From assembly GCA_964565765.1 (NCBI GenBank), contig CAZMGF010000007.1:3222-67221 (forward strand): a stretch of DNA of 64,000 nt. Reading direction: 5' to 3'. Source of the DNA: an uncultured Spirochaetia bacterium. Lineage in GTDB: Bacteria; Oederibacteriota; PGYV01; Palsa-1178. The stretch's first letter is position 1; every line of letters begins with the position of its first letter. Positions 22,312-60,853 of the stretch are shown in pieces. The position numbers and the translations under genes were made by a program. Under the pieces are notes generated by a model. That model worked only from the letters and a program-made list of their open reading frames with translations. It searched no databases and was not told the origin of the DNA.

Positions 22312-22737
22312 TCATACCCTGTTTTTAACAACACCCTCGCTCCACGTATCCCGCATCATCTGTATTATTTTCAGGGCGTCTTCGGCCTTCTGCCTGTCTT
22401 TTTTCATATTGCTCTGGGTTATCGACCGGTCTATAAAAACGTAAAGTTTCCTGAAATTAACCGCTATATCCCCGCCTTTTTCAAAATTAAGCGAGCCGTT
22501 AAGTTCATCCACAATGGCATCCGCCTTGTTAAGGTTGTTGTTTATTTTTTCGTATGACTCCTCGCTGAAGCCTTCCAGGGCCGCCCGCAGGAATTTAATG
22601 CATCCATCATACAGGTCAAGTATGAGCAGCTCCGGCGGCCGCGTTAAAAAACTGTTATTTACATACTTTTTTATCGAATCGTTCATGCTGTCAACCGCCC
22701 TTAATTCCTGTTTTTCCATTTTCGTCCCGCCTTTCAT
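22312..22737 (-). CDS. fliS: Flagellin export chaperone FliS (alternative start at 22719)
   Basis: PPELLILDLYDGCIKFL...ELNGSLNFEKGGDIAVNFRKLYVF...MRDTW. Confidence 0.92.
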   Translation of the reverse strand: MKGGTKMEKQELRAVDSMNDSIKKYVNNSFLTRPPELLILDLYDGCIKFLRAALEGFSEESYEKINNNLNKADAIVDELNGSLNFEKGGDIAVNFRKLYVFIDRSITQSNMKKDRQKAEDALKIIQMMRDTWSEGVVKNRV

Positions 22738-23366
22738 TAATGTAATGTACTGCCTTCCATCACGTCTTTATAAAGCGCAGGCATGGTATTTTCCCAGCCG
22801 TCTATCATAGGCAAAAGTTCGTATTCCACAATATCCGCGGTCATAATACTATCTTCCAGGCTTATCGCGTCAACTATCCTGGTAAGCATCCCGTTTATAA
22901 CGGATGACTTTTCAATAAATTCATTCACATAACTGCGCCCCTCAACAAAGTTCAGGAGCCCGGATGTTTTCATGCTTCCCATCATTGTAAAAACAGTCTG
23001 GATACTCGACACGCACTGCGAGAAACTTTTCATGGATTTCTCAAATTCCCCCGTCAGAAGAAGCTCCACAACTTTCTTAAGCGCGCCTTTCACCTTTTCA
23101 AGCACAAGAACCGAATCATATATTGTGGCCATCGCTATTTCTTTCTGGGTTGCGGTTACAAGATCCACATATTCGTCATGCACGCTCACAAGCCCGAAAA
23201 TATCCTGGCCGTAAAAATCATACTTGTCGCCCCGGGGGGTCTTTAAAAAAACTATAATCCTGTCCTTTTTTCCGGTGCCCCGCTCCACAAGTTCCACAAG
23301 CGTGTTTCTGCTCTGTTTTTCAAACTCTATTGCGCCGTATTCGATGCCGTCAATTAAAAGTTTCAT
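22737..23366 (-). CDS. Conserved-looking hypothetical helical protein between fliD and fliS
   Basis: 209-aa ORF coupled to fliS by a TAATG overlap; C-terminal TADIVEYELLP...W motif resembles hypotheticals in other flagellar loci. Confidence 0.7.
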   Translation of the reverse strand: MKLLIDGIEYGAIEFEKQSRNTLVELVERGTGKKDRIIVFLKTPRGDKYDFYGQDIFGLVSVHDEYVDLVTATQKEIAMATIYDSVLVLEKVKGALKKVVELLLTGEFEKSMKSFSQCVSSIQTVFTMMGSMKTSGLLNFVEGRSYVNEFIEKSSVINGMLTRIVDAISLEDSIMTADIVEYELLPMIDGWENTMPALYKDVMEGSTLH

Positions 23367-29391: not shown

Positions 29392-29913
29392 CTAAAGCTG
29401 AACATCTAAAAAATTGAGTTCGTTTGATTTTTTTAAAGCATAGCCTTTATCCGAGTAAACTGTCATTTCCCCGTCGCCTTTTTTCATGAAATTAACAACA
29501 TAATTTATAAACTTTACCGTGTCGGCTATGAGCCTTTTGTTTACCATGGCAACCGTCCTTATGCTGGAAGTATATTCCCTGAGCCTGGAAAAAACCTTTT
29601 CAAATTTCATGGTCCAATCTCCCGGAAAAAGTTTTATAAGCCTCATAACCGGCACCTGCTCGCCGGCTTCATACCCGTAGCCGGCCTTCACGGCTTCCAT
29701 GTGTTCCTTAACCTCGTCTTTTTGCACGCTTATGGCGTTCATAAGCTCTTCCTTTTCAATAATGGACGCTGCCAGGCTTTTAAGGTCCTCATAAATTATC
29801 ATGTCTTTTTCCTTCATTGAAAGATCCAGGAGTTTTTTATATAAATTCGCTATTTCATCAAAACACCTGTAAGAATCCTCCATGCATTGTTCCGGTGCCG
29901 GGCCATGGTCCAT
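29392..29913 (-). CDS. flgN: FlgK/FlgL export chaperone FlgN
   Basis: Helical protein between flgM and flgK; YKKLLDLSMKEKDMI; VNKRLI; ends FLDVQL. Confidence 0.8.
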   Translation of the reverse strand: MDHGPAPEQCMEDSYRCFDEIANLYKKLLDLSMKEKDMIIYEDLKSLAASIIEKEELMNAISVQKDEVKEHMEAVKAGYGYEAGEQVPVMRLIKLFPGDWTMKFEKVFSRLREYTSSIRTVAMVNKRLIADTVKFINYVVNFMKKGDGEMTVYSDKGYALKKSNELNFLDVQL

Positions 29914-30527: not shown

Positions 30528-31673
30528 TTATTTTACAATCACTTTTCCCTTTATTGCCCCTGCGACTTTCATGTCTGTAATAATTGAAATAATATCATCA
30601 GCCGATACCCCCATGGTATTAAGGTTCTTTACAACATCCGCAAGGGTGGCGCCTTTTTTTAGTTCCGCAAAATTGGCCCTGTCCTGGTCCACTGTCATAC
30701 TTGAATTTATTGCCTGAATTGTCGAGCCCGGCGAAAACGGGTTAGGCTGCGAAATTACATTCTTTGATGAAATCGCCACGTGCAGGTTTCCATGGGAAAT
30801 GGCCACTTCGTCCACCGGAATCTGGGCCCCCATTATTACGGTGCCGGTCCTTTCATCAAGCACTACCGAAGGTTCCCCCGGATCCTCTATCTGCATGGAC
30901 GAAACTTCCGCTATGAACGACGCTTTTTTGTTCATATAATCCCCGGGGATATTTACCATTATTTTCTTTCCGTCAGTTGTGCTCGCTGTGCCGCCGCCGA
31001 ATTTCGCGTTTATCCCTTTTATAATGGCCTCGGAAAGTTCAAAATCATTCCTGGCCGTAAATAACGCCACCGAACTGTCTGCGGTAAAATCCGCGTCTAT
31101 TTTTTTCTGGACAGTGGCGCCGCCCGCTATAAAACCCGATGTCGGCGCGTTCTTGCTCACGCTGTTGTTGTTGACCTCAAAATTATGCCCGCCGACCGCC
31201 ACCGAACCCTGGGCGACCGCGCACACATCGTTATTGCCGGCTTTTAACGGGGCCATAAGGAGCGTCCCTCCGTAAAGGCTCTTCGCGTTGCCTATTGAAG
31301 ATATGTGGATGTCTATTTTTTCGCCCTGCTCGCATGTGGGCGGCAGAACTGCCGTCACGATTACGGCCGCGCAATTAAGCGTCTCAATCTGGTCAAGCGG
31401 AACCCTTACCCCCAGCTTATCAAGCATATTAACGACTGATTCCACGGTGACAAGATCCTTACCCGTATCGCCCGTGCCGCTTAAGCCGACCACTATTCCG
31501 TATCCGATGAGGTCGTTGCTCCTCATGCCTGTCATTGATGTAAGGTCCTTAATTTTAGCCGGGGTCGCGGAAATAAAGGACGGCACAACGGCTATAATCA
31601 TAATTATGGCCGCAACAACCGCGCCGTAATGAAGCCTTCCGTCCGGATGTTTTTTCATATGAGCTCCCGCCAT
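30528..31673 (-). CDS. flgI: P-ring protein FlgI (start 31673 or 31658)
   Basis: KIKDL..GMRSNDLIGYGIVVGLSGTGD; AKSLYGGTLLMAPL; VVLDERTGTV. Confidence 0.95.
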   Translation of the reverse strand: MAGAHMKKHPDGRLHYGAVVAAIIMIIAVVPSFISATPAKIKDLTSMTGMRSNDLIGYGIVVGLSGTGDTGKDLVTVESVVNMLDKLGVRVPLDQIETLNCAAVIVTAVLPPTCEQGEKIDIHISSIGNAKSLYGGTLLMAPLKAGNNDVCAVAQGSVAVGGHNFEVNNNSVSKNAPTSGFIAGGATVQKKIDADFTADSSVALFTARNDFELSEAIIKGINAKFGGGTASTTDGKKIMVNIPGDYMNKKASFIAEVSSMQIEDPGEPSVVLDERTGTVIMGAQIPVDEVAISHGNLHVAISSKNVISQPNPFSPGSTIQAINSSMTVDQDRANFAELKKGATLADVVKNLNTMGVSADDIISIITDMKVAGAIKGKVIVK

Positions 31674-32254
31674 TAGAATATTCCCAGCCAGTCAAAAACC
31701 TGGCTCAAGAAACCCATTTTTGATTTGTTGCCCAGTACACCGTCGCCGGTATAATCGATTTTTGCGTTAACTATCTTTGTCGAAAGTATCGTGTTGTCGG
31801 CCTCGATATCCTTCGGATTAACCTCTCCCTCGACAGAAATCTTCTGCGTGTTTCCGTTCATCTGGAGGTTTTTCTGCCCCTTTAACACCAGGTATCCGTT
31901 CTGTTTTACCTCAACAACCTCCACGGTTATTTCTGTCTGAAGCACACCGCTCTGGGTTGCCGTGCCTTTGCCGGTGTTCTGGTTGTTATAGGTGAACTGT
32001 CCGCCGTACGCGGTTGTGTTACTGGCCGGCCCGGCCCCGGCTGTGAGCCCGAAATCCCTTGAAACCCCGGTCTCATTCGACTGCGCGGCAGTCGCGTTTT
32101 CATTTATCAGAATCCTTACGGTATCTCCGGCTTTGTAGGTTTTTGAATTGGTATACAGTGAATTGAGGTCTCCCGAAAGGTCTTCGGCGTAAATAAAAAA
32201 CGCGGCAAAAAGCAGGGCAATAACCGTAGCCAGAATTTTTTTCATTTTACTCAC
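31673..32254 (-). CDS. flgH: L-ring protein FlgH, non-lipoprotein type (no Cys)
   Basis: KAGDTVRILINE; VVEVKQNGYLVLKGQK; NPKDIEADNTILSTKIVNAKIDYTG. Confidence 0.92.
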   Translation of the reverse strand: MSKMKKILATVIALLFAAFFIYAEDLSGDLNSLYTNSKTYKAGDTVRILINENATAAQSNETGVSRDFGLTAGAGPASNTTAYGGQFTYNNQNTGKGTATQSGVLQTEITVEVVEVKQNGYLVLKGQKNLQMNGNTQKISVEGEVNPKDIEADNTILSTKIVNAKIDYTGDGVLGNKSKMGFLSQVFDWLGIF

Positions 32255-34554: not shown

Positions 34555-36981
34555 TCAGGCGCAGCTTGGCAGGTGTATCGTAAATATGGTGCCTTTGCCG
34601 GATGTAACAAAATCTATCTTGCCGCCCTGTAGTTCAATGGCCTTTTTCACATTGTACAACCCGAGTCCCGTTCCGGTTTTTTTGGAGGTGTTAAAAGGCT
34701 CGAATATTTTGTTCATTATTTCTTCCGGTATGCCGTGGCCCGTGTCTCCGATTTTTATAACAAGGTCCCCGGCTTCCTCTGATGCCGCGACCGTCATTTC
34801 CCCGCCGCCCTTCATTTCATCCATGGCGTTCATATAAAGGTTCAAAAGCACCCGTTCAAACCACATTTTATCAGCTTTTACCATGCCGGTTATTTTCAGG
34901 TCCTTTACTATCCTGACATTCTCGGATTTGGCCTTGTGCGCGATAAATTTAAGGGTGGCGCCTATCGACGCTTCCGGGTCAAATTCTTCAATGGTTATCT
35001 TCATCTGTTTGGCGAATTCCATCATTTGCTTCAATATGTGGTCTATATCTATTATCTTTCCCTCCAGATTTTCAAGTATATCGTCTTTTTCCTGAACGGT
35101 GGCGTTCCTTGAATTCTGCACCGCCCCGAGCATTATGGTAAGAGGATTTCTTATCTCATGCGCGACGGCCGCCGCGAATTTTCCCATTCCCGCCAGCTGT
35201 TCACTTATAATGAGCCGCTGCTCGGTCTTGCGCAGAGTCTCGGTGGTTTCTATAAGCTGCTCGTTTTGCTTCAATATCTGGTCAAAAAGGTATGAATTCT
35301 CTATTGATTTCGCCACATGTTCCATCAGCAGTGCAAGCATTTCCACATGAAGCGGATCCATATCCTGTTTTTCAACGCATACGTAACCTATAAGCTTATA
35401 ACGGAGTTTCAGCTGGAAAACCCGGGTGACGCCCGGAATGTTGAAAACCGCGAATTTTTCATTGTTAAGAAGGGCATCCGTTGAATCCTTTCCATAATTT
35501 TCAATTTCTTCCCTGTTGATGGTATTTTTCGAGTACCGCTCAATGCGTTCTTTTTCATATCCGGTGCAGTGTATCAGCTCGAGATTCTGGGATTTTTTAT
35601 TGAAAAGCAGGAGCCCGACTTTCTCCGAGCCCACAAACTGCGAGACTATTTCCACAAAAATGCCTATAAGCTTGGTGTATTCCATGGTTGAATTTATTAT
35701 CTGGGAAATATTGATAAGGCTCCTGATGAGTATGTTTTCCTTGTTGAGCCTGCCGACAAGCATCATGTTTTTATAAATAACGCTCACTATATTTACCACA
35801 AAATCAATTATTTCCATCTTGTTTTCAAAAGTGGCCTCAATACCCCTGGCGTTATAGAGCACAAGCACGCCCAGTTTTATTTCGGCTCCCTTCAGGGGGA
35901 TTATCAGCACATTGGAAACAAGGCCTTCCGGATCATCCATATATTTTTTAACGTCATCGCCGGTAAGAAATAAAGGCTGCTGGTGCATGGCTTTTTTGAC
36001 CTGCTGTATGTGTGTTTTCAATCCGGCATCTGAAAATTTTTCAGCCCCTTCCTGTTCCTCCATGCCGCTCCTGTAAATATTGCCGCCGTCAAAAATATAG
36101 ACGGCCCCGGCCTGGGCGTAAAAATAATTCCCCACCTCCAGAAGAAGCTTTTTAAAAAAATCCCTGCTCCCGGACGGCTCGTTAAGGGTGTGCTGAAAAA
36201 GTTTCTGGATATTGGCCAGCAGCCTTTCGCGCGTCCTGTCATTAACGACAAGTATGCGCCTCTGGTGCCCGTCTACTTCCATGCTGTTTATTTCAAGGTA
36301 CAGTTTTCCTTTGACCGGCGAAACAAACTGTGCGTTCACAGGAGAATCTGAATTTTTTATGTCGGTTTTAAAGACAGCCTCTGCATTCGCCCCTATTATC
36401 ATTTCCTGGCCCACAGAGAGCATATCGTATAGGTTGGAATTCGCCTCAATAATATTGAGCCCGCTGTCTGTAAGTATTACGGCGTTAGGCATCCCCTTCA
36501 AGACCTCGTCAAGCATAACTTTGCGGACATCCGCGGTGTCATGCGCCCGTGAGTAGCTTTCTTTAAGGGCCAAATTTGCCGTTTCCAGCTCGTCGGTAAG
36601 CATTTTTACCCTCAGCATGGCCTTTATCCTGGCGCGCAACTCTTCGGGTTCAAAAGGCTTGGTTATATAATCATCAACTTTTGAGTTTATAAAACTGTCA
36701 ATCTTGTCTTTCTGGAGATGCCTTGCAGTAACCATTATAATGGGTATTTTCCTGAGCCCGGGGTCTTCTTTGATCATCCTGGCAACTTCGCCCCCCCTTA
36801 AAAGAGGCAGCATTTCGTCAAGAAGTATAAGGTCGGGTTTAAAACTGTTTATTTTTGAAAGGGCTTCTTTGCCGTCATTGGCGGTTTCAACTTCATACTG
36901 CCCGGGCTCCATGCCCAGTATTATCTGGATAATCTTGACTATATCGGGCTCGTCGTCAACGACAAGTATTCTTTTTTGCAT
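34555..36981 (-). CDS. Soluble hybrid histidine kinase REC-PAS-GAF-GAF-HisKA-HATPase
   Basis: REC ILVVDDE..LLDEMLP..TKPF; H-box AHEIRNPL; N box LLNLYMNA; DTGHGI; GTGLGL; no TM segment. Confidence 0.9.
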   Translation of the reverse strand: MQKRILVVDDEPDIVKIIQIILGMEPGQYEVETANDGKEALSKINSFKPDLILLDEMLPLLRGGEVARMIKEDPGLRKIPIIMVTARHLQKDKIDSFINSKVDDYITKPFEPEELRARIKAMLRVKMLTDELETANLALKESYSRAHDTADVRKVMLDEVLKGMPNAVILTDSGLNIIEANSNLYDMLSVGQEMIIGANAEAVFKTDIKNSDSPVNAQFVSPVKGKLYLEINSMEVDGHQRRILVVNDRTRERLLANIQKLFQHTLNEPSGSRDFFKKLLLEVGNYFYAQAGAVYIFDGGNIYRSGMEEQEGAEKFSDAGLKTHIQQVKKAMHQQPLFLTGDDVKKYMDDPEGLVSNVLIIPLKGAEIKLGVLVLYNARGIEATFENKMEIIDFVVNIVSVIYKNMMLVGRLNKENILIRSLINISQIINSTMEYTKLIGIFVEIVSQFVGSEKVGLLLFNKKSQNLELIHCTGYEKERIERYSKNTINREEIENYGKDSTDALLNNEKFAVFNIPGVTRVFQLKLRYKLIGYVCVEKQDMDPLHVEMLALLMEHVAKSIENSYLFDQILKQNEQLIETTETLRKTEQRLIISEQLAGMGKFAAAVAHEIRNPLTIMLGAVQNSRNATVQEKDDILENLEGKIIDIDHILKQMMEFAKQMKITIEEFDPEASIGATLKFIAHKAKSENVRIVKDLKITGMVKADKMWFERVLLNLYMNAMDEMKGGGEMTVAASEEAGDLVIKIGDTGHGIPEEIMNKIFEPFNTSKKTGTGLGLYNVKKAIELQGGKIDFVTSGKGTIFTIHLPSCA

Positions 36982-37054: not shown

Positions 37055-37792
37055 CTAGAATATATTAAGGACTTTTTCAACGGAGAGTTTTGCCTTTATT
37101 TTTGAAATGGCCTGGCCGTGTATCTGGGATATCCTGGCCTCTGTCAGATCCATCGCCCTTGATATCTCCTTGAGGGTGAATCCTTCATAATAATACATTG
37201 ACAGCACCGACCTTTCACGGATATCAAGAGCCGTGTCAATTATCCTGGCCAGCAGCTCCCTGCGTTCCATGGATTCCGCATTATCATCGGCGTAAACCGG
37301 GCCGCCTCCGGAATTTGACGAAAAAAATTCGTCTATGGAATAAACCTTATTTACGTGCAGGCCGTCTATGAGCTTGTAATATGCCGTCATATCCAGTCCC
37401 ATTTCCTGAGCAACCTGCTCGTCCGTGGGGTTCGAACACCCGCGCTCCATCAGCGCTCTGTAGGCTTTTTCAAGCCTTGAAGTTTTTTCTTTTACCGATC
37501 TCGGGGCCCAGTCGGCGTTTCTTAAGTAGTCCATTATACTTCCGTATATCCTGAAATAGGCGTAAGTGACGAATTTTATATCGCGCCCCGGGTCGTACTT
37601 TTCAACGGCCTCCAGGAGCCCCATTGCCCCTATATTAAAAAGGTCGTCTTTACTGGCAAGCGTGGAGGCAAAATAAACCCTTTCCACCACGAACCTGACC
37701 AGGTTTATATATTTTTTCGCTATTTCATTCCGTGCCGCTGTGCTTTTGTTTTTTTCGTACTCTTCCCAGACGCCCTTTTCTTCTTCATTCAT
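37055..37792 (-). CDS. fliA: Flagellar sigma factor sigma28 (FliA/WhiG)
   Basis: GAMGLLEAVEKYDP..KFVTYAYFRIYGSIMDYLR..DWAPRS; YYYEGFTLKEI...TEARISQIH. Confidence 0.95.
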   Translation of the reverse strand: MNEEEKGVWEEYEKNKSTAARNEIAKKYINLVRFVVERVYFASTLASKDDLFNIGAMGLLEAVEKYDPGRDIKFVTYAYFRIYGSIMDYLRNADWAPRSVKEKTSRLEKAYRALMERGCSNPTDEQVAQEMGLDMTAYYKLIDGLHVNKVYSIDEFFSSNSGGGPVYADDNAESMERRELLARIIDTALDIRERSVLSMYYYEGFTLKEISRAMDLTEARISQIHGQAISKIKAKLSVEKVLNIF

Positions 37793-37991: not shown

Positions 37992-39404
37992 CTAAAGCCC
38001 GTATTCTTTCATCTTGTTATAAAGCGTCTTATAATCCACTTTCAGCGCCTCCGAAACCTTTGTCTTGTTCCATTTAAATTTGTTAAGGGCCCTGACTATC
38101 ATTTCACGCTCTATCTGCTCCCTTGCCCTGCCGCAGGCGTCCTTTAGCGGCAGTATCTCCCCGGAGTCACTCCCGCCCGCCCCGCCTTCCATGCCCGGCT
38201 GGCCGTAATGTTCGCCGCCCGCCACCCTGTCAGTAAGGCTCTTTGGCAGGTTTGCTTTTGTAATATAAGTGTCGGCCATTATTATGGCGTGCTTTATTGT
38301 GTTTTCGAGTTCCCTCACGTTGCCCGGCCATGAATAATCCATAAAAATCTGTTTTACTTCATCATCAATTTCTTTCACATTTTTTTCAAATTTAAGGTTA
38401 TATTTCATTATGAACCTGCCAGCCAGGAGAAGCACATCGTCCCCCCTGCCCCGCAGCGGCGGCAGTTCAAGGTAATATTCATTTATCCTGTGGAAAAGGT
38501 CGTCCCTGAATTCCCCTTTTTTCACAGCTTCATTAAGGTCCACATTTGTCGCGGTAATAACGCGAATATCCAGGTCTATGGTCTTGCGCCCCCCGATTCT
38601 GACTATCTTGCGTTCCTGAAGGACCCTTAATAATTTTTTCTGCACATTAAGCGAAAGATTGCCTATTTCATCAAGAAACAGCGAGCCGCCGTTGGCAAGC
38701 TCGAACCTGCCTGTTTTCGCCTCTGTGGCTCCGGTAAACGACCCTTTTTCATGGCCGAAAAGTTCCGATTCGACGAGATTATCCGGCAGTGTGGCGCAGT
38801 CTATCGAAACAAAAAGCCCCTCTTTTCTCTGGCTGTTCCTGTGTATGGTCTTGGCGACCAGTTCCTTGCCGGTTCCGGATTCACCCAGCAAAAGCACGGA
38901 AACCTCATAACCGGCTATTTTCCTCGCAGTTTCCACAACTTTGGAAAAGCCCGGATGCCCGGTTATTATTTCTTCCTCGGAGTCTTCGCCTTTTATTTTT
39001 TTACGGAGAAGTTTAATTTCCGTTTCCAGTTCCCTTGTCTTAAGGGCATTCTGCACCGTTACCCTGAATTTTTCCTCATCAACGGGTTTTACAAGATAAT
39101 CATAGGCCCCGAGTTTTGTCGTTTCCACCGCAAAACTTACATTTTCATAGGCTGAAAGTATTATTACAGGTGCCTTGAACCCCCTCTCGTTCATCTGTTT
39201 CATAACATCCACACCCGACATACCCGGCATTGTAATATCAAGTATCACCATGTCAAAGGCTGTTTTTTCTATTTTAGAAAGGCAGGCTTCGCCGTTTGAC
39301 GCGCTTTCAAAATCGTAGCCGAATTTTTTTACCAGGCTGCTTATATACCAGACTATCTCAGGGTCGTCATCCACTATAAGTATCTTATGCGTTTTTGGAT
39401 CCAT
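37992..39404 (-). CDS. NtrC-family sigma54 enhancer-binding protein (REC-AAA+-Fis HTH), likely the flagellar activator
   Basis: REC with ILDITMP; GESGTGKE; ESELFGHEKGSFTGA; WPGNVREL; C-terminal HTH WNKTKVSEALKVDYKTLYNKM. Confidence 0.92.
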   Translation of the reverse strand: MDPKTHKILIVDDDPEIVWYISSLVKKFGYDFESASNGEACLSKIEKTAFDMVILDITMPGMSGVDVMKQMNERGFKAPVIILSAYENVSFAVETTKLGAYDYLVKPVDEEKFRVTVQNALKTRELETEIKLLRKKIKGEDSEEEIITGHPGFSKVVETARKIAGYEVSVLLLGESGTGKELVAKTIHRNSQRKEGLFVSIDCATLPDNLVESELFGHEKGSFTGATEAKTGRFELANGGSLFLDEIGNLSLNVQKKLLRVLQERKIVRIGGRKTIDLDIRVITATNVDLNEAVKKGEFRDDLFHRINEYYLELPPLRGRGDDVLLLAGRFIMKYNLKFEKNVKEIDDEVKQIFMDYSWPGNVRELENTIKHAIIMADTYITKANLPKSLTDRVAGGEHYGQPGMEGGAGGSDSGEILPLKDACGRAREQIEREMIVRALNKFKWNKTKVSEALKVDYKTLYNKMKEYGL

Positions 39405-39472
39405 TTTTCCTCCATGTATTTCCGTTTTTTTTGGATTCACGGGGCGCATTAATAATAATCATTTTCCCGCCA

Positions 39473-45109: not shown

Positions 45110-45447
45110 AGTTTTCCCGCCTTTATCGGGGCCCCTGCCGCAAGCTCGGTGATGCGTACGCCGTACTTCTCCCCTATCACAACCACTTCACCCCGCGCGA
45201 ACAGGTTTTCATTGATGTAAAAATCGACCGGTTCTCCGGCCACCTTGTCAAGTTCTATAACGGTCCCCACGTCAACGTTAAGCGCCTTTTCAAGGGTCAT
45301 TTTTGTGTTGCCCAGCTCCACAGTCGCTCCCAGGGTTACATCAAGGATTTTTTCTATCTTTTCCCTTGTAATTGAATCCTTCGCCTGAGCCTGCTCCGGA
45401 GAGCTGTTTTCTATCTGCGCAAATTCAGCCTTTTTCACATCATCCAT
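45106..45447 (-). CDS. fliN: C-ring protein FliN
   Basis: ILDVTLGATVELG...GEPVDFYINENLFARGEVVVIGEKYGVRIT. Confidence 0.93.
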   Translation of the reverse strand: MDDVKKAEFAQIENSSPEQAQAKDSITREKIEKILDVTLGATVELGNTKMTLEKALNVDVGTVIELDKVAGEPVDFYINENLFARGEVVVIGEKYGVRITELAAGAPIKAGKL

Positions 45448-46357
45448 TTTCTTTTCCTCCTTTTATGCAGGCGATAACCTTGACCGCCATTTTTTTTCCG
45501 CGTAATCCGGGCATCGCGAGAAATTTTGCCTTGCCTCCTATTGCAACGGTAAGGGGCTTGTATATGTCATGTTCGAGCGTCACGCAGTCCCCGGGCTGTA
45601 TGTCAACCAGGTCCTTAAGCTTTATATTTATGCCGCTTAATACCACCTTGCATTCAACCGGCATATTTTTGAGCCTTCCCGCCTTTACTTCCATGGTTTC
45701 CTGACTGGAATTCTTTTTTTCCTGCTGGGGCGGTTTTTTTATCCCTTTTTTAAGGACTGGTTCAAGCAGGAACGAAGGGAACCCCATCACAAAACCACCC
45801 TGATTCTCCGCAAAATTTACATCAAAGTGTATTGTGGTGACAAGGTCGTCAACCATATGAATCTCAAAATTTTCCGCTTTTTTTATCACTTCCTTGATTT
45901 CAAAAGAGTACCTGAGGTTTTTTGGAAGGGCCCTTTCAAAATGTTTCAGTATCCTTTCACATGTCCTGAAAAGGATCCTCTCTTCCATGCCCGTAATCTC
46001 CTGGCGTTCCTCGCTTTTTTTTGAGTCGCCGCCCAGAAATCCGTCCGTCATAAGGTAGCTTAAATTCCTGTCTATCTGGATGAATATTTCCCCTTCCATG
46101 CCCTCAATGCCAACCCTGGCTATTACGACCGGCATCTTTAGTTTCTTGGCCGCCTGGCCGAATTTATTGACGACAGTTTCCCTGTACTTTACGGCAAACG
46201 GCCTCTTAAAATGGCTTGAAAAAGCGAATGACAGCATTTCTGTAAAGCTCTCCGAAAGAAATTTTATAGACTTCAGTTCATCCGGCTGCAGGAGTATGTT
46301 TGACTTAAAATCGTACAGCTTGACACCCGTGTCTTTTTTTTCCGCAAGCGCCATCAT
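45440..46357 (-). CDS. fliM: C-ring protein FliM lacking the N-terminal CheY-binding peptide
   Basis: VKLYDFK, FliM middle domain and C-terminal SpoA domain present; no LSQxEIDxLL. Confidence 0.88.
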   Translation of the reverse strand: MMALAEKKDTGVKLYDFKSNILLQPDELKSIKFLSESFTEMLSFAFSSHFKRPFAVKYRETVVNKFGQAAKKLKMPVVIARVGIEGMEGEIFIQIDRNLSYLMTDGFLGGDSKKSEERQEITGMEERILFRTCERILKHFERALPKNLRYSFEIKEVIKKAENFEIHMVDDLVTTIHFDVNFAENQGGFVMGFPSFLLEPVLKKGIKKPPQQEKKNSSQETMEVKAGRLKNMPVECKVVLSGINIKLKDLVDIQPGDCVTLEHDIYKPLTVAIGGKAKFLAMPGLRGKKMAVKVIACIKGGKENG

Positions 46358-51659: not shown

Positions 51660-52127
51660 CTAGTTTAATCCCGCGCCCTGCGCCCTGAATTTAAAAACCG
51701 CGTACTCGTCCGATGCCTTTTGTTCATTCAGATTCTCAGCGTCTTCATGTACCTTTTCATCCCGTTCCCTTATTTTTTCATATGTAAGTGTTTCTTTTCC
51801 GGCTTCTGTCAGGTCCCTGTGCAATTCCTCGAGCTTTGCCTCAAGGGATCTTATCTCCTCTTTTTTTCTTTTTATAAATTCACCGATGCATACAAGATAT
51901 GTGTGGTAGGATTTTATTTCATTAAGATTCTGCGGCGTACGCCTTCCTTCGGAAACGGTTTTAAGCATCGTGTGCCGCATCAGCATCTCTTTTTCAACAG
52001 CTATGTTAAGTTTTATCTTTTCCACGCCGATCTGTGTATTCAGGGTGTCACACTGCTTTTTTATTTCCTTCTCCGTGAGTTCCTTATTTTTCAGAATCTT
52101 TTCAAACCTGTATTTAAAGCTGCTCAT
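51660..52127 (-). CDS. fliJ: Export ATPase stalk FliJ
   Basis: FKYRFEKILKNKELTE; coiled coil; EQKASDE; follows fliI. Confidence 0.85.
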   Translation of the reverse strand: MSSFKYRFEKILKNKELTEKEIKKQCDTLNTQIGVEKIKLNIAVEKEMLMRHTMLKTVSEGRRTPQNLNEIKSYHTYLVCIGEFIKRKKEEIRSLEAKLEELHRDLTEAGKETLTYEKIRERDEKVHEDAENLNEQKASDEYAVFKFRAQGAGLN

Positions 52128-54049
52128 TTTTTAGCCTCCTGTCTCATAATATTTTCAAGTTCTGCCAGGCTTCCGGCCGGCTCGCTCTTTTCGTCGATTC
52201 CCTGCCTTAAAAACGAATTCAATTTTTCAATTATATGACGCGCGTGGTCCACTTTTGGATTTGCACCTTTTTTATACGCGCCAATATTAATAAGATCCTC
52301 CATCTCCTGCATTATTGAGACTGTTTCCCTGGCTTTTCCCGCCGTTTTAATCTGGGCGTCGTCCGTAATGTCGGCCATCAGCCTGCTAATTGATGAAGTC
52401 ACATCAATTGCCGGATAATGATTCCGCGTGGCAAGCTTCCTTGATAGAACTATGTGTCCGTCCAGAATAGATCTCACAGAATCCGCCACCGGCTCGTTCA
52501 TGTCATCGCCTTCAACAAGCACGGTGTAAAACGCCGTTATTGATCCGCCTTTTACAAAATTCCCGGAACGCTCAAGTAATTTTGGAAGCTTGGTAAAAAC
52601 AGAAGGCGTGTATCCTTTTGTGGAAGGCGGTTCTCCGGTGGCAAGCCCTATTTCCCTTAGAGCGGTCGCGTAACGTGTGACAGAATCCATCATTAAAAGC
52701 ACATTGAGCCCCATGTCCTTAAAAAACTCGGCTATCGTGGTCGCCGCCATGGCGCCGTGAACGCGTTCAAGGGCGCTCCTGTCAGATGTGGCCGCTATGA
52801 CCACCGCTCTTTTTAAACCCTCTTCCTGCAGGTCCTTTTCAATAAAATCCTTTACTTCCCTGCCCCTCTCGCCGATGAGCCCTATTACAATGACATCAGC
52901 CGATGTGTTGCGCGCCATCATTCCCATAAGAGATGATTTCCCTACCCCGCTGCCGGAAAATATACCCATTCTCTGCCCTTTTCCGCATGTAAATAAGGAG
53001 TCTATGGCGCGTATCCCCGTGGTTAGTTTATCCTTGATTCTGTCCCTTTCAAAAGGCGTTGTCTGTATCCCGTAAATGGAGCGCTTTTCCGTAAATTTTA
53101 TTGCCGGCCCGCCGTCAATCGGGTTTCCAAGCCCGTCCATAACACGGCCAAGCATATCTTTTCCAATCCCGAGTTCAAACTGCTGCTTTAAATCAATAAC
53201 CCGGCTGTTGGGGCCCACGCCCTGCATTTCATCAAGCGGCATCAGCAGGTTCTTGCCCTCCCTGTAACCTACAGCTTCAGACTTTATCCTTTTCTTGTTG
53301 TCTTTGGTGAATATGTCGCACATGTCTCCTATAGAGCACTCAAGCCCCTCGACCTCAATAACGCTGCCGACTATTTCCTTAACAACTCCTTCGACAGTGA
53401 CAAGGCTTGTTTCAGGAGTTATTTCATTTCCCGTCAGTATCTTTTCCCCGGCATTTTTAATCTTTTCATTTATGGTCGCGTCAACGGCCCTGCTTCCGGA
53501 TTCTACTATGCAGCCGCCTTTTGAAAGCGTCCTGTCCTTTTTAAGTGTTATTCCCTTGCGTGATTTTTCAAGCTCAACCGCAAGGCCGCTTGCCGCAAGG
53601 GCGTCAAAGTCAGTTTCGTTCAGATAAACCTCGATTTCCTCGTGCGCGGCAAAATTGGCCATCGCATCTTCAACTGTTTTTTTTATCTGTCCCTCGTCGC
53701 TTTTACCTCCGGCAAGAATGTTTCTGAGTATATCCATCATATCTTGTACATTCGCCCGTCTGCGCTTTGCCTCAAGGGCGTCATATTTTTTCAGTACGCC
53801 CGAGAGCAGTGTCTTAAAACCCTTCCTGGCGTTTTTTTCCGCAAGAATCCTGGCCTCATTTGTCTGCGCAAGAAGCATTTTTTCAAATTCAAGCGCGGCT
53901 TCTTCATAACCGCGCGTGTATTCCGCCGACTTTGTCCTTAAAGCGGCCGGCAAAATTTCGTCTATTACCGCCCCCATTCCGGCCGCTGCCGAAATCATGG
54001 CGCTGGATGACGGCTTTTTTGTGTTCTTTATTATCCTATACAACGACAT
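52124..54049 (-). CDS. fliI: In-frame FliH-FliI fusion (export ATPase with its regulator)
   Basis: aa 1-205 are FliH-like (VYLNETD...DRTLSKGGCIVESGSRAVDATI). From about aa 217 the sequence is FliI (VEGVVKEIVGSVIE; FSGSGVGKS; LLMMDSVTR). No stop codon at the junction. Confidence 0.9.
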   Translation of the reverse strand: MSLYRIIKNTKKPSSSAMISAAAGMGAVIDEILPAALRTKSAEYTRGYEEAALEFEKMLLAQTNEARILAEKNARKGFKTLLSGVLKKYDALEAKRRRANVQDMMDILRNILAGGKSDEGQIKKTVEDAMANFAAHEEIEVYLNETDFDALAASGLAVELEKSRKGITLKKDRTLSKGGCIVESGSRAVDATINEKIKNAGEKILTGNEITPETSLVTVEGVVKEIVGSVIEVEGLECSIGDMCDIFTKDNKKRIKSEAVGYREGKNLLMPLDEMQGVGPNSRVIDLKQQFELGIGKDMLGRVMDGLGNPIDGGPAIKFTEKRSIYGIQTTPFERDRIKDKLTTGIRAIDSLFTCGKGQRMGIFSGSGVGKSSLMGMMARNTSADVIVIGLIGERGREVKDFIEKDLQEEGLKRAVVIAATSDRSALERVHGAMAATTIAEFFKDMGLNVLLMMDSVTRYATALREIGLATGEPPSTKGYTPSVFTKLPKLLERSGNFVKGGSITAFYTVLVEGDDMNEPVADSVRSILDGHIVLSRKLATRNHYPAIDVTSSISRLMADITDDAQIKTAGKARETVSIMQEMEDLINIGAYKKGANPKVDHARHIIEKLNSFLRQGIDEKSEPAGSLAELENIMRQEAKK

Positions 54050-55037
54050 CAGGGTTGCCCCCTTCCAGGACTATTTCTCCGCTGGCTTCGAGTTTCCTTA
54101 CAGCCGCGAGCACCTTCTGCTGGGACTCCTCGACTATCTGCCTTTTCAGCGGCCCGGTTGCTTCCATATCGTCCTTTATCATTTCCGCCCCGCGCTCGGA
54201 CATATTTGTGAATATTTTTGTCTTTAATTCCTCCGATACGCCTTTAAGAGCTATGACAAGCTCTTTTCCCTCAACTTCACGGAGGATCCGCTGCATGTAC
54301 CTGTCTTCAATGGCCTTTAAATCCTCAAACCTGAATAGTTCTTTTTTGATAAATGAGGCCATTTCAGGTGCGTCTTTTTCAAGGATGTCAATTATCTCCT
54401 TGAGCTGTTTTTTATCGACTTCGTGCAGTATTTTAATAAGTTTTTCAAGGCCGTTAATCTTTATCTCCTTCTTTTTTACAAGCTTGTCCCTTAAGATGGA
54501 AATTATTTCATTTATCATTTCCGTATCGGGCTCGGTTTTTTCAATAACCCCTATGCGCCTTGCTATGTCGGCCCTGGCGTCTTTGGGCAGGAAGCTTAAA
54601 ATATCGGCCCCTTTTTCAGGCGACGTAAAGGCCACTATCACAGCTATTATCTGCGCAGGCTCATTTTTTATCGCCTCAAAAATTTTTTCGGTTTCCAGTT
54701 CCTCGATAAACTTGAACGGCCCCTCGTCGGGCCTTAAAAAAGATATCATTTCATCAGCTTTTTTGGAGTCGTAAAGGTTTGAAAGTATTTCCCTGGCAGC
54801 CGGATAGCCGCCGGTGCTTTTTTCGTCCGCTTCCACCATTGACAGTGTAAAATCCCTTATTATTCCAAGACGCTCTTCCATTGATATCTCTCCGAGGTTC
54901 ATCACCTCGGCCACAACATGGTTGACCTCGTTCTCATTTAAGTGTTTGAGGATGTCCTTTGAGAATTCCGGCCCAAGCGCGACTATGAGTTTTGCAACCT
55001 TTGCGAAATCTTTTCCTTTTTCAATTGTTGCGGGCAT
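54036..55037 (-). CDS. fliG: Rotor/switch protein FliG
   Basis: KVAKLIVALG; LFRFED (MFxF motif); torque helix NMSERGAEMIKDDM. Confidence 0.94.
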   Translation of the reverse strand: MPATIEKGKDFAKVAKLIVALGPEFSKDILKHLNENEVNHVVAEVMNLGEISMEERLGIIRDFTLSMVEADEKSTGGYPAAREILSNLYDSKKADEMISFLRPDEGPFKFIEELETEKIFEAIKNEPAQIIAVIVAFTSPEKGADILSFLPKDARADIARRIGVIEKTEPDTEMINEIISILRDKLVKKKEIKINGLEKLIKILHEVDKKQLKEIIDILEKDAPEMASFIKKELFRFEDLKAIEDRYMQRILREVEGKELVIALKGVSEELKTKIFTNMSERGAEMIKDDMEATGPLKRQIVEESQQKVLAAVRKLEASGEIVLEGGNPDVVV

Positions 55038-55049
55038 ATTTATTCTCCA

Positions 55050-56555
55050 TTATGATATCCATGATTTTATGACCTTGGCGGCTTCTTTGGGGTTTTCCCT
55101 TGCCATTTTAAGTATTTCCTCGGGTTTTAAATTTTTCCCGTGGCCGTTTCCATTTCCATTGCCGTTTCCATTGCCGTTCCCGTTGTCATGCCCAGAAGAT
55201 ATATAAACACCCTTGGAAAAAAGCTGGATGCCTTTTCCCATATTCACGGCAAAAACAACACCAAGAATTATCAGAACCAGGGCCGGTAAATAATCTTTCA
55301 GCAGGTTTACATAAAAATCGCGCTGCGCAAGAGAATCTATTTTAGCGGTTTCTTCCTCGGATATTGACGCCTTGAATTCCATGGCTTTTATGTCAATAAC
55401 GTCCCCGCTTTTTACGTTTATTCCCGCGGCGGCCGCGATGGATTGTTTTAAATTGTCCATATATTTGTCGTCGTATTTTCCGTTGAGCACAACGGCAACT
55501 GTCACGTTCTTTACATCGCCGGGCGTCACAACTGTTTTTTCAGATTCCCTGTTTAATTCATAATTTACGGATTTTTTCTGCCTGACTACCGGCGGTGGTG
55601 CCGGAAGGGACGAGTTTGTGGTCACAGTTGCGCCGTTGGAAGGCGCCACTCCTTCGGAAGTGGAGTCTTCCGATTTTACCGCGGCCTGCTGCGGCTGCGG
55701 CGGAGGTGTATATGATTCCTTCGCTTTTTCCACCTTATTAAACTGAAGCGCAGCGCTGACACGAACCGTTGAATTTCCGGCTCCTACTATATTGTCCAGG
55801 AATGACTGTATTTTGTTCCTGTAATAATCCTCAACCCTGCTGGTAAGTTCAAGTTTTTTATCGGATATGTCGGAATCCGCGCCCCTTGAAAATTCCGTCA
55901 GTATTTTTCCGTCGGTTGAAATTACGGCCACACCCTCGGGCCCGAGCCTTTCAACGCTGCTTGCGACAAGATTCTGTATGCCCAAAATCTGCTCTTTTTT
56001 CAGGTCAACGCCCGGCTTTAATTTAAGGTAAACCGAGGCTTTTGACTGTGACTGTTCATCATCGAATAATTTCTGGTCCGGAATTGAAAGGTGCACCCTG
56101 CACTTTTCGATTCCCGGTATATTGTCAATGGTCCTTTCGAGTTCCGTCTGCAGCGCCCTCTGATAGTTTATTTTCCTTTCTTCATCGCTCATTCCAAAAT
56201 TAGCCTTGTCAAAAAGCTCAAAACCGACTCCGCCGCCTATGGACATCCCGCTTCCGGCAACTTTTATCCTCTCCTGCATCAGCATATTTTCCGCGACAAG
56301 CACGGCTCCCGTCGCCTTGTCAAATTTATAAGGCACCTTGTCATCGTCAAGCTTTTTTACTATTTTGGCCGAATCTGCGTCGGTCAAATTCGAAAATAAC
56401 GGCTTATAATCAGGCGTAGTGGCCCATACAAATATGCCGCTTCCAAGCAGCGCCACAATCAAGCCGGTTACTATCAGCCCTGTCTTCTGCCCGGGCTGTA
56501 GCGAGTTCCACCAGTTTTTGGCGGAAGCTAAAAGATTATTAAGTTCAGTAGGCAT
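55050..56555 (-). CDS. fliF: MS-ring protein FliF
   Basis: Two TMs; GFELFDK..FGMSD; YQRALQTELERTI; C-terminal ENPKEAAKVIKSWI. Confidence 0.95.
   Translation of the reverse strand: MPTELNNLLASAKNWWNSLQPGQKTGLIVTGLIVALLGSGIFVWATTPDYKPLFSNLTDADSAKIVKKLDDDKVPYKFDKATGAVLVAENMLMQERIKVAGSGMSIGGGVGFELFDKANFGMSDEERKINYQRALQTELERTIDNIPGIEKCRVHLSIPDQKLFDDEQSQSKASVYLKLKPGVDLKKEQILGIQNLVASSVERLGPEGVAVISTDGKILTEFSRGADSDISDKKLELTSRVEDYYRNKIQSFLDNIVGAGNSTVRVSAALQFNKVEKAKESYTPPPQPQQAAVKSEDSTSEGVAPSNGATVTTNSSLPAPPPVVRQKKSVNYELNRESEKTVVTPGDVKNVTVAVVLNGKYDDKYMDNLKQSIAAAAGINVKSGDVIDIKAMEFKASISEEETAKIDSLAQRDFYVNLLKDYLPALVLIILGVVFAVNMGKGIQLFSKGVYISSGHDNGNGNGNGNGNGNGHGKNLKPEEILKMARENPKEAAKVIKSWIS
55143..55184 (-). 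repeat. (Asn-Gly)7 dipeptide repeat in the FliF cytoplasmic tail
   Basis: Encoded by mixed synonymous codons (AAC/AAT, GGG/GGC/GGA). Confidence 0.85.
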
Positions 56556-57661: not shown

Positions 57662-58117
57662 TTATCTGTCCTCCTGCAGAAAAAGTCCTTCACTTCTTGT
57701 GTTTTTATAGGCATTTACCAGCATTACGCGTTTCTTTACGTTATTTATTTTTATCCTTGTGCTGTCCATGTTTTTCTGGAGCATTTCCGCGTTGCGTGTC
57801 TGAATTTTGATGAGCTCTTCAAGCAGAAAAGAAAGTTTTACCAGGAGCCTGTCCAGGTCCTTTGAAGAAAATCCGGTCTTTTCTTTCACCGTCATATATT
57901 CATTTTTAAGGGGTTTTATCTGTTTTTCAATCGCGTCAAGATCGGCTATTATGGCTGATTTCTCGGAAAGCACTTTCATGGTCTTTCCGATTTCCCCGCC
58001 TTCCTTTATAAGCTTCATTTCTTCGTCAAGTTTTAACAGCAAAGATTCATAACAGCGTATCTCAATGGCATACTTTGCTATTATTGTATTTATTTTTTCC
58101 TCGGTCATTCTTTCCAT
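57662..58117 (-). CDS. Helical FlgN/FliT-like protein, first gene of the basal-body operon
   Basis: Coiled-coil protein coupled to flgB; ends LFLQEDR, like FlgN-type chaperones. Confidence 0.6.
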   Translation of the reverse strand: MERMTEEKINTIIAKYAIEIRCYESLLLKLDEEMKLIKEGGEIGKTMKVLSEKSAIIADLDAIEKQIKPLKNEYMTVKEKTGFSSKDLDRLLVKLSFLLEELIKIQTRNAEMLQKNMDSTRIKINNVKKRVMLVNAYKNTRSEGLFLQEDR

Positions 58118-58450: not shown

Positions 58451-59125
58451 ATGGATGGCCAATTTTCCGTTAACAAACCGCGCCTTTTTGCGTTTATCGC
58501 GCTTATTTCCCTGATATTTACCATGGCTATATACGCCGGCTGGGGTTATCATAACGGCGGCTACCGGAACGACGGTTACAGATATGGCGGCGGGTCCCGC
58601 GGCGAATCCGCTCAGGGCACAAATTACCGGGCGGAATCGGAACAAAAGCAGGATTATAGCGGCCAGGGGTATCATAATGGCCGGGTGCGCGGTTATGGTT
58701 TCAGGTATGGGGGCTGGCGCGGCTGGTATGGCTGGTACGGTTTATACGACCCGTTCTGGCTGGTCGATATGCCCTATTTATATTTTCCATATTATCATCC
58801 TTACACGATAACATACAATTACAGCGATTTTTCCGACAGCTATTATTACAGCCCTCTTCTTGACAGGTACGAACCTGTATCGCCCCTTGCAAGTTCAACG
58901 CCTCTGGTTGATACGGCGGCCGCAGCTGCCGCGGCGCAGGTTGATACGGTGGCAAAGAAAACTGAATCAGCTGATAATACAATAACAATAAATATCCCGA
59001 ATTCCAAAGGAGGGTTCACTCCTGTAACGCTTAAGAAAACGGATGGCGGATATACCGGCCCCAACAATGAATTTTACAAGGGGAATCCGACCGTCGAGGA
59101 ACTAAAGGCGTTATACGGGAATTGA
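58451..59125 (+). CDS. Exported Gly/Tyr/Arg-rich protein with a small C-terminal domain
   Basis: SD AAGGAG; signal/TM segment; GYHNG twice; GWYGWYG; C-terminal TITINIPNSKGGFTPVTLKK...PTVEELKALYG. Confidence 0.75.
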   Translation: MDGQFSVNKPRLFAFIALISLIFTMAIYAGWGYHNGGYRNDGYRYGGGSRGESAQGTNYRAESEQKQDYSGQGYHNGRVRGYGFRYGGWRGWYGWYGLYDPFWLVDMPYLYFPYYHPYTITYNYSDFSDSYYYSPLLDRYEPVSPLASSTPLVDTAAAAAAAQVDTVAKKTESADNTITINIPNSKGGFTPVTLKKTDGGYTGPNNEFYKGNPTVEELKALYGN

Positions 59126-59185
59126 TTCCATTTTGTTTAGCAGGCTGTTATATAATAAATGTTTTATCGCCTGCGGTTTTCAAAA

Positions 59186-60853
59186 CTAAAAATTATATCC
59201 GGCAAAAGCCGATATTATAAATCCCCTGTAATCCATTGTGGTTTCCCCGGTGGTTCCCACGCCATAAACAGCGCCTTTATTAATTGTAATTGTCGATCCG
59301 TTGGATGTTGTAACCGAATAATCTTTATCAGCCGTTAATTTATCCACAATGCAATACCTGTATCCAAGGTCAAAGCCGTATGAAAGCCCTTTATGCCCTT
59401 TATCAGGATATTTAATCTTTAAATCAAGATCGCATAATCCCGAGCCGCCATAATAATTGGAATTGATGTCATAATTGCCGTATGCCGGATCGCCTGTTAC
59501 CTTAGCATTCCTGGATACTTCCGCGAAACCGTAACCCAGTCCCGCCGATACATCCACCACAAAAGGCAGGTCATATCCTTTGATTACATCGCCGGGTTTA
59601 ATTTCATATCCCGCCTCGGCTTCAAGCGGGATTAAGCCGGCGTATATATCTATGTTGTGCGGACTGCCGTTCAGGTCGAATTTTCTATTTGCGTCAATAC
59701 AAAATAAATATCCCGCCTCAGGGCCGAAATAAAAACCGTTGGCCTTCACGTCCGCGCCGGCCATTATTGATATGCCGCTGTTCATCTGCGAATAGCTTAC
59801 ATTACTGTAACTTGGATTGGCCTTGAATATTTTATTCATTGTGTACATGCCGTTGTTCAGGTTTGACATCAGGACATACTGGTAACCAGCCTCCAGGTTA
59901 ATAATCAATTTATCCGTGCCAAATGTCCATGAGGATGGAGCCGCCGCGTCAGCGCCGCCGGAATCCATGCTATTCTCTCCAGCTCCGGTTTTTATACCAT
60001 TTGAATTTTCAGCGGGCTTTTCAACCTCTTCAGTTTTCACAGCGGCCTGCGAAAAAGGATATTCATACCCGATCCCGAATATCCATGACGGCCCGGTTAT
60101 TCCGGCCTCGACCAGGATCCTGGAATCGCTTTTTGGCGGCGTTAATTCAGCGCTCAGGGAAAAATCAAGGCCGAGCCCGAGCCCCGGCAGATATTTCTGA
60201 AGAAAGGCTGAATGCCAGACGTATGTGGAATTTGATATAGGTGTGGAATAACCCGACCATGGGTCGTCAATGTTCATACCCATATAGCCGTACATGCTAA
60301 AACCCAGGGACGCGCCAAACTTTATATATTCATTCATTGCCATATGGGCCGTAAATTCCGGAGAAAGAGCCCACCAGAAACCAGATATATCTATCATATC
60401 ACCGCTGTGTATATAAACCTGGCTGCCGAAACCGTTATCAGCAAAATAATTTCCAGGCTCTCCGCCGCCCTGCTGCGTCTGCCAGTATGTATATGCCAGC
60501 GCGAGCTTTCCTTTTAAACCCCAGTCAATTGGCGTGTCATTTAGATGGAGCCTGCCCATTATCTTTTCTGCGCCGCCCTGCAGCACCAGGTCAAATGATC
60601 CGATTGTATAAGCCGAATTGGCATTGTCGTTCTGGTCAATAAAGGCCGGTACAGGCAGCCCCGAGACAGATGTGCCCATGTCAACCGAGGCTGATAAAAG
60701 TATATCGTCAACCGTGGCCGTCACATGCGGCGCGGAAATGGCTGAGATTGCCGGCGTTCCATCCGCTCCGATTTTCATCCCATCCATCGCGGAAAGACTG
60801 GTGGAAATAAGCAAAATTAACGCGAGTCCCGCAAGAACCCTGCGGTGTCCCAT
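59186..60853 (-). CDS. Outer-membrane protein with two tandem beta-barrel-like domains
   Basis: Signal peptide; domain 1 ends WIFGIGYEYPF; ~40-aa linker; domain 2 ends FIISAFAGYNF. Confidence 0.65.
   Translation of the reverse strand: MGHRRVLAGLALILLISTSLSAMDGMKIGADGTPAISAISAPHVTATVDDILLSASVDMGTSVSGLPVPAFIDQNDNANSAYTIGSFDLVLQGGAEKIMGRLHLNDTPIDWGLKGKLALAYTYWQTQQGGGEPGNYFADNGFGSQVYIHSGDMIDISGFWWALSPEFTAHMAMNEYIKFGASLGFSMYGYMGMNIDDPWSGYSTPISNSTYVWHSAFLQKYLPGLGLGLDFSLSAELTPPKSDSRILVEAGITGPSWIFGIGYEYPFSQAAVKTEEVEKPAENSNGIKTGAGENSMDSGGADAAAPSSWTFGTDKLIINLEAGYQYVLMSNLNNGMYTMNKIFKANPSYSNVSYSQMNSGISIMAGADVKANGFYFGPEAGYLFCIDANRKFDLNGSPHNIDIYAGLIPLEAEAGYEIKPGDVIKGYDLPFVVDVSAGLGYGFAEVSRNAKVTGDPAYGNYDINSNYYGGSGLCDLDLKIKYPDKGHKGLSYGFDLGYRYCIVDKLTADKDYSVTTSNGSTITINKGAVYGVGTTGETTMDYRGFIISAFAGYNF

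Follow-up and report, generated by a model that had tools for sequence, protein, structure and literature searches.

In the accepted view, the ATPase complexes of flagella and injectisomes are built from the FliH2–FliI unit, in which FliH and FliI associate reversibly at a ratio of 2:1 and are held together by the FliI N-terminal helix. In Salmonella, FliH dimerises via a coiled coil formed by residues 101–140; one FliH C-domain of the dimer grips the FliI helix that spans residues 2–21, and its counterpart sits on a cluster of FliI arginines comprising R26, R27, R30, R33, R76 and R93 (PMC9114704). The assembled ring has the composition FliH12–FliI6–FliJ, and FliH2–FliI units exchange at the C-ring via FliN (PMC9114704), an exchange that has been proposed as a route of substrate delivery. 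The subject of the present work is a gene, here called fliHI, in which FliH and FliI are encoded as a single polypeptide. It is found in a stretch of 64,000 nucleotides (the window) from the genome of an uncultured Spirochaetia bacterium (contig CAZMGF010000007.1), where a first-pass annotation, made from the DNA sequence, had singled it out as a natural FliH–FliI fusion.

The injectisome possesses a homologous ATPase and stalk pair, SctN and SctL, which to our knowledge are separate proteins in all described systems. The FliI part of the fusion matches the injectisome ATPase EscN (PDB 6NJO) at 6.3e-102, although the fusion locus is a flagellar one. Full-text literature searches yielded no occurrence of a FliH–FliI or an SctL–SctN fusion. 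Parallels can also be drawn with the rotary ATPases. FliH is homologous to the b plus delta subunits of F-type enzymes, and the contact of the FliI N-terminal helix with the FliH C-domain mirrors that of the alpha subunit N-terminus with delta (PMC9114704; bioRxiv 10.1101/2021.01.01.425057). Natural b–delta stalk fusions exist in some F-type enzymes (mycobacteria) and in N-ATPases (bioRxiv 10.1101/2021.01.01.425057); these join stalk to stalk, however, whereas here a stalk is joined to a catalytic subunit and the docking helix is lost. The E–G peripheral stalks of V/A-type ATPases, of which there are two or three per A3B3 head, resemble the FliH part in the fold of subunit E and in a helix periodicity of ~3.7, but E–G is a heterodimer which is not fused to A or B, whilst the three dimeric stalks of a fusion hexamer are what we infer. 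Within the flagellum, neighbouring genes with interacting products can be fused and still give assembly, and FliF–FliG fusions have been used for structural work (PMC11481574). FliF–FliG and FliM–FliN fusions are engineered or spontaneous laboratory mutants affecting the rotor; the fliHI fusion, by contrast, is natural, clade-wide and situated in the export ATPase complex. Set against the Salmonella complex (PDB 5B0O, 2DPY), the locus is alike in both homologous halves, in the gene order fliG-fliH-fliI-fliJ and in the presence of FliJ, FliN and FlhA. It differs in that one polypeptide takes the place of two, in that the helix at FliI residues 1–~22 is deleted and in that four of the six arginines of the second contact are not basic. 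The FliH:FliI ratio would moreover be fixed at 1:1, as opposed to 2:1 with reversible association in Salmonella.

The open reading frame (ORF) at 52124–54049 encodes 641 amino acids (aa), with FliH followed by FliI as originally proposed. The FliI half contains the Pfam domains ATP-synt_ab_N (residues 224–287), ATP-synt_ab (345–555) and T3SS_ATPase_C (562–632) and scores 586.7 bits against the FliI/YscN family model TIGR01026 of NCBIfam (cut-off 379.5). It falls just under the cut-offs of the two equivalog models, FliI_clade2 (595.5 versus 629.8) and FliI_clade1 (578.5 versus 619.1), and because its best score is to these FliI clade models the locus is assigned as flagellar rather than injectisome. 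Residues 31–451 of Salmonella FliI (PDB 5B0O chain A) align to the fusion with E = 1.8e-122, residue 31 corresponding to residue 223 of the fusion. The Walker A motif, GSGVGKS, is present with K371 equivalent to Salmonella K188, and the catalytic glutamate E394 is equivalent to E211; both residues are invariant in all 11 fusion sequences described below. By score, three-domain layout, catalytic residues and position in a flagellar operon the protein belongs to the FliI/YscN family, of which it lacks one feature, the FliH-binding helix at the extreme N-terminus (Salmonella residues 2–21), which is also a regulator of oligomerisation. In the alignment to TIGR01026, residues 213–636 correspond to profile positions 17–440 of 440 and positions 1–16 have no counterpart. 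In an alignment with the 49 best stand-alone FliIs, the beta-barrel of the latter is preceded by ~22–24 extra residues in which an (F/L)xKYxxIL-type motif recurs; the fusion has no counterpart of this stretch, the end of FliH being found there instead, and its FliI half begins where residue ~24–26 of a stand-alone FliI would fall. Judged by these alignments, the amphipathic FliI N-terminal helix of ~22 residues which binds FliH in Salmonella is absent from the fusion, in agreement with the first-pass annotation, according to which FliI started at its first beta-strand with its N-terminus missing. In the second contact surface, the equivalents of Salmonella R26, R27, R30 and R33 are T/V/V/E-like and not basic, whilst those of R76 and R93 are K266 and R283, both basic.

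The FliH half is recognised by Pfam model PF02108 over residues 78–199, with a score of 42.9 bits against a cut-off of 24.1, and a profile built from 149 stand-alone FliH proteins matches the ORF at 1.1e-27. A phmmer search of this half against PDB sequences found no FliH; the kinship is recovered by Pfam and by fold comparison only. An AlphaFold model of residues 1–213 has a mean predicted local distance difference test score (pLDDT) of 75, and its best Foldseek matches are the FliH chains 5b0o_E and 5b0o_F (E about 2e-6, template modelling score 0.66–0.70). These are followed by subunit E of the V/A-ATPases from human, Thermus, Pyrococcus and yeast (E = 6e-5 to 3e-4). By score and by fold this half is thus a FliH, albeit one that is not a separate, non-covalently bound polypeptide in any member of the clade. 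At ~206 aa it lies at the short end of the family (median 236 aa for the 149 stand-alone proteins).

Three segments can be distinguished within the FliH half: an N-terminal motif, a long alpha-helix presumed to form a coiled-coil stalk, and a C-terminal globular domain. The motif, MSLYRIIKN, is conserved in 11 of 11 fusions and is similar to the MSxIIK with which stand-alone FliH proteins begin, 34 of the 149 matching a loose pattern of this kind; the Salmonella residues Trp-7 and Trp-10 are absent. These tryptophans are the source of the docking role assigned to the FliH N-terminus (PMC9114704), and by analogy MSLYRIIKN is presumed to contact FliN at the C-ring (and FlhA). The product of fliN, which is present in the window, is the expected C-ring docking partner. 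The stalk helix, 86 residues in length, displays a hydrophobic stripe that is conserved and for which the best-fitting period is 3.75 (P = 0.008 relative to shuffled sequences); a period of 3.67 is also significant, whilst the classical heptad period of 3.5 is not. Right-handed coiled coils, among them those of the F-type b2 and V-type E–G stalks, show a periodicity of ~3.7. The stripe in the FliH helix, as read from the aligned sequences, fits a right-handed coiled coil of the kind seen in the peripheral stalks of rotary ATPases. The FliH part also contains an A8 homopolymer, at window positions 53677–53684 on the minus strand (codons Q-I-K-K-T), a spot prone to sequencing error. It is probably not a programmed slippage site, because it is unconserved at the protein level in relatives.

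The junction between the two halves was located as follows. Aligned to a profile made from the FliH part of the fusions, 149 stand-alone FliH proteins have C-termini whose projected position is fusion residue ~212 (interquartile range 209–215). In the AlphaFold models the last FliH helix comprises residues 193–205/206, a coil follows at residues 207–217 and the first FliI strand occupies residues 218–227. From the projection and the model boundaries it follows that FliH is complete, that FliI begins at its first strand and that ~11 residues lie between them. The ~11-residue linker originally placed at 53437–53401 corresponds to residues 205–217 and so coincides with the AlphaFold coil and the projected FliH C-terminus. 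Throughout the clade the length of the linker is conserved, its sequence only semi-conserved (G.EIT..TSL). A model of the full-length protein, computed from 11 sequences, is of low confidence (pLDDT 63), and its Foldseek matches only restate the homology of FliI. Six diverged DNA sequences read through the junction in frame; they differ at many third positions, mostly synonymously, and no internal start codon near the junction is conserved among these six. In the window sequence, the stretch from codon ~196 to codon 243 is free of in-frame ATG, GTG and TTG. An in-frame deletion appears, from these comparisons, to have taken out the stop codon of fliH together with roughly the first 22 codons of fliI.

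A homology search with the whole protein returned 11 clusters (defined at 90% identity) of 636–643 aa, which cover the entire query at 53–100% identity, the matches after these being stand-alone FliIs of 435–450 aa. Shorter members of the fusion clusters are fragments cut at contig ends. In the 11-sequence alignment the FliI part is 68–93% identical to that of the window protein, whilst identity in the FliH part goes down to 27%, and the indels at the junction amount to one gap of a single residue in the most divergent member (P0011). For one member (P0270) there are 35 contigs, drawn from NCBI, JGI, ENA and Logan. The ratio of non-synonymous to synonymous substitution rates (dN/dS; Nei–Gojobori method, three closest sequences) is 0.11–0.17 for the FliH part and 0.03–0.04 for the FliI part, values which are approximate because dS is near saturation; on these estimates purifying selection acts on both halves. 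Constraint is weakest in the linker, with a dN/dS of 0.2–0.8 over 12 codons. All 50 bootstraps of a neighbour-joining tree built from the FliI part, in which the 49 stand-alone FliIs were included, recover the fusions as monophyletic; in the FliI part, members of the fusion clade share at least 65.8% identity, and identity to stand-alone FliIs does not exceed 62.7%. Of the contigs from related genomes, L002 bears the label candidate division FCPU426, and L001 and L003 bear that of 'uncultured Spirochaetia'. These three are the ones with an open frame of more than 100 aa upstream of FliI among the 66 GTDB species representatives retrieved, the other 63 having a stand-alone fliI. A metagenome scan, with the clade-specific FliI N-domain as its sole query, added three JGI loci, each carrying the fusion and identical to a known cluster, and brought up no pre-fusion sister lineage.

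Together, the conserved architecture and linker length, the monophyly, the in-frame junctions, the dN/dS values and the 35 contigs uphold the initial view of a genuine fusion with covalent replacement of the FliI N-terminus rather than a chance read-through. Separate genes in close relatives, named in the first-pass annotation as the refuting case, were looked for and not found: every member of the clade is fused, and separate genes belong to other phyla. The comparative data make it very probable that fliHI arose by an ancient fliH–fliI fusion which has been maintained by selection in a clade of uncultured bacteria (FCPU426 and related metagenome-assembled genomes, MAGs). Source databases label the fusion proteins just 'flagellum-specific ATP synthase', a label under which the genomes that encode them would seem to be without fliH. 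A tblastn search with matches reaching into the FliH part also brought up apparent fusions in Thermodesulfobacteriota, 'Deltaproteobacteria', Hydrogenedentota, Planctomycetes and Zipacnadia; these are separate, adjacent fliH and fliI genes in different frames.

It had also been noted that the cluster contains no separate fliH, and this stands for the whole window: of its six-frame ORFs, fliHI alone is matched by two FliH hidden Markov models (HMMs), one specific to the clade and one broad. It is the sole FliH, and also the sole FliI, found there. No second FliH-like ORF was found with these models in five related loci (L001–L003, L067, L068) either, and the broad HMM recovered stand-alone fliH in eight of eight control loci. 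An exhaustive search of 1.84 billion representative proteins with a profile of the FliH part gave 8294 FliH-like matches. One of these, the representative of the fusion cluster itself, lies below 1e-30 (271 bits), and the next best scores 85 bits; by this measure there is no close stand-alone relative of the fused FliH among the 1.84 billion representatives. The 149 next-best matches listed, all of 154–409 aa, include no other fusions. A word-indexed homology search with the FliH-part alignment returned zero matches and missed the known fusions too, probably through swamping by Lys/Glu-rich words.

How might an export ATPase built from such chains be arranged? The gene encodes a single 71-kDa chain that comprises the FliH docking motif, stalk helix and C-domain, ~11 residues, and then FliI from its beta-barrel onwards with the catalytic site intact. 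In the reading that we favour, the covalent tether would replace the non-covalent contact of the FliI N-terminal helix with one FliH C-domain and, with a peptide bond in place of the helix–groove contact, FliH would no longer leave FliI but would be permanently attached, with the FliH:FliI ratio at 1:1 and no longer 2:1. Since the conserved hydrophobic stripe has been kept, pairing of the long helix of one FliH with that of another most likely persists, and the soluble unit would then be a (FliH-I)2 dimer. The FliI6–FliJ ring would be tied to FliN at the C-ring by six FliH chains at most, the simplest layout being three two-stranded stalks, each common to neighbouring FliI subunits. The explanation as a whole, combining the maintained fusion, 1:1 tethering, the dimer and the proposed ring and stalks, is in our judgement likely to be correct. 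The specific three-stalk arrangement we hold to be less likely than not. Rather doubtful is the most far-reaching form of the proposal, an export ATPase with half the FliH complement, three neighbour-paired stalks and no reversible FliH–FliI association, which would amount to convergence on the layout of the eukaryotic V-ATPase. If that form were true, a flagellum could be built without the stoichiometry FliH12FliI6 and without the 'dynamic carrier' cycle of FliH2FliI.

Several considerations weigh against this reading. The scan for fliH covered 64 kb of the present genome and some 20 kb per relative, and a divergent stand-alone fliH may lie elsewhere in these genomes. The 641-aa product, predicted from the gene, may not stay intact. 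The evidence from periodicity for coiled-coil pairing is modest and not significant at the classical period. The full-length model is of low confidence, and an 11-residue linker might not let the FliH chains of neighbouring subunits pair. Finally, with four of six arginines replaced by residues that are not basic, the canonical contact with the second FliH C-domain may also have been altered.

Among the alternatives, the one that survives best supposes twelve fusion chains per apparatus, with six FliI subunits in the ring and six outboard as spare or cargo-carrier ATPases, such that six dimeric stalks are kept. It has a precedent in Salmonella, where additional FliH2–FliI units are docked to the C-ring next to the hexamer, with fast exchange (PMC9114704, PMC4185386), and a (FliH-I)2 dimer would necessarily include a second FliI. 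K266 and R283 are, however, the only retained parts of the docking patch for the second FliH C-domain, and we consider this arrangement improbable, if the least so of the four alternatives. Slightly less probable again is retention of the canonical 2:1 ratio by means of a stand-alone FliH, encoded outside the flagellar cluster, which pairs with the fused FliH to give one free and one tethered chain per stalk. FliH is normally a dimer both C-domains of which touch one FliI (PMC9114704), only part of each genome was covered by the fliH scan, and some of the 8294 FliH-like representatives of the profile search might stem from such genomes. Against this, the window and the five related loci hold no other FliH-like ORF, the nearest stand-alone match lies far below the fusion cluster (85 against 271 bits), and deletion has removed the FliI helix by which a free FliH dimer would be held.

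The two remaining alternatives do away with the single chain itself. Two proteins might be made from the one ORF by internal initiation, frameshifting or proteolysis at the linker, a segment which is predicted to be coil and is the least constrained of the protein, and some relatives do have an in-frame GTG or ATG near the junction. These start codons are at unconserved positions, however, none is available in the corresponding codons of the window sequence, the A8 run in the FliH part is unconserved, and a released FliI would be without the helix for rebinding FliH; this possibility we regard as very unlikely. That the gene is an artefact or pseudogene, produced by a collapsed deletion, a frameshift error or a chimaeric assembly joining two genes, could be entertained for a window from an uncultured organism known from assembly alone, but is effectively refuted already by the same architecture in 11 diverged clusters from NCBI, JGI, ENA and Logan assemblies, by one protein on 35 contigs, by in-frame junctions with differing nucleotides and by purifying selection on both halves with invariant catalytic residues.

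On the favoured reading, that of a maintained fusion with FliH tethered at 1:1, the protein, though no new kind of machine, departs unexpectedly from a stoichiometry treated as universal and gives direct access to the question of why FliH is a dimer that can detach. A lineage in which FliH is hard-wired to FliI and the docking helix deleted, with a full regulon under purifying selection, bears on which properties of FliH2–FliI are essential. It bears likewise on the number of stalks needed per FliI6 ring and on the kinship of type III secretion system (T3SS) ATPases to the peripheral stalks of F- and V-type enzymes. The single-chain FliH–FliI could also serve as a stable reagent for structures of the stalk–ATPase junction.

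The positions of fliHI, its segments and its principal neighbours are collected in Table 1. The gene occupies the usual fliG-[fliH-fliI]-fliJ slot: the 3' end of fliG and the ATG end of fliHI share 14 nt, and the fliHI stop codon overlaps the start of fliJ (ATGA). The genes fliF, fliG, fliHI, fliJ, fliK, flgD and flgE all lie on the minus strand. The same gene order, flgB-flgC-fliE-fliF-fliG-[fliHI]-fliJ-fliK-flgD-flgE-flbD-motAB-fliLMNOPQR, is found around the most divergent members of the fusion clade. With flgBC, fliE-R, flhBA, motAB, flgFGAHI, flgMNKL, fliW, flagellin, fliDS, FliA and a sigma-54 activator, the window contains essentially the whole flagellar regulon.

Table 1. Location of fliHI, its constituent segments and neighbouring flagellar genes in the window
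Feature	Position	Strand	Remarks
fliHI fusion gene	52124..54049	-	641 aa + stop codon
FliH N-terminal motif MSLYRIIKN, aa 1-9	54023..54049	-	
Long FliH alpha-helix, aa 28-113	53711..53968	-	presumed coiled-coil stalk
FliH C-terminal globular domain, aa 119-206	53432..53695	-	PF02108 + fold match
Linker TGNEITPETSL, aa 207-217	53399..53431	-	predicted coil
FliI N-terminal beta-barrel domain, aa 218-295	53165..53398	-	
FliI ATPase domain, aa 345-555	52385..53017	-	
FliI C-terminal helical domain, aa 562-632	52154..52366	-	
fliJ (central stalk)	51660..52127	-	directly 3' of fliHI; translationally coupled
fliG	54036..55037	-	directly 5' of fliHI
fliF	55050-56555	-	
fliN, 113 aa	45106..45447	-	Pfam FliMN_C on L067/L068 orthologues
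fliM	45440-46357		beside fliN

Other features of the cluster deserve mention. Near its C-terminus FliF contains a (Gly-Asn)x7 run, DNGNGNGNGNGNGNGHG, at window positions 55143–55184 on the minus strand, coded by an imperfect tandem array with units of 6/12/18 nt; this could be a length-variable linker before the FliG-binding tail. The genes for the L-ring and P-ring proteins, flgH and flgI, are found at 30528–32254 and flgA is also present in the cluster, which indicates a diderm with an external flagellum. This fits poorly with the naming of the closest MAG contigs (L001, L003) as 'uncultured Spirochaetia'.

Directly downstream of flhA are genes for a sigma-54-dependent response-regulator activator (37992–39449) and a FliA-like sigma factor (37055–37792), and next to these lies a hybrid histidine kinase/receiver (34555–36981). 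The presence of these regulators between 34555 and 39449 suggests a multi-tier flagellar transcription hierarchy within the cluster. ORFs without a Pfam match flank the flagellar cluster or lie inside it (58451–60853, 22737–23366), with products of 224 aa (plus strand), 555 aa (minus strand) and, between fliS and fliD, 209 aa. There are two genes for FlgN-like chaperones, at 57662–58117 and 29392–29913. The former, upstream of flgB and flgC, has a weak Pfam match of 28.1 bits, under the cut-off of 30.5, and unannotated orthologues of 146–153 aa occur at the same place in L067 and L068. A small PilZ-domain protein (21835–22209), encoded adjoining fliS and fliD, is a possible c-di-GMP (cyclic diguanylate) brake or regulator of the motor.

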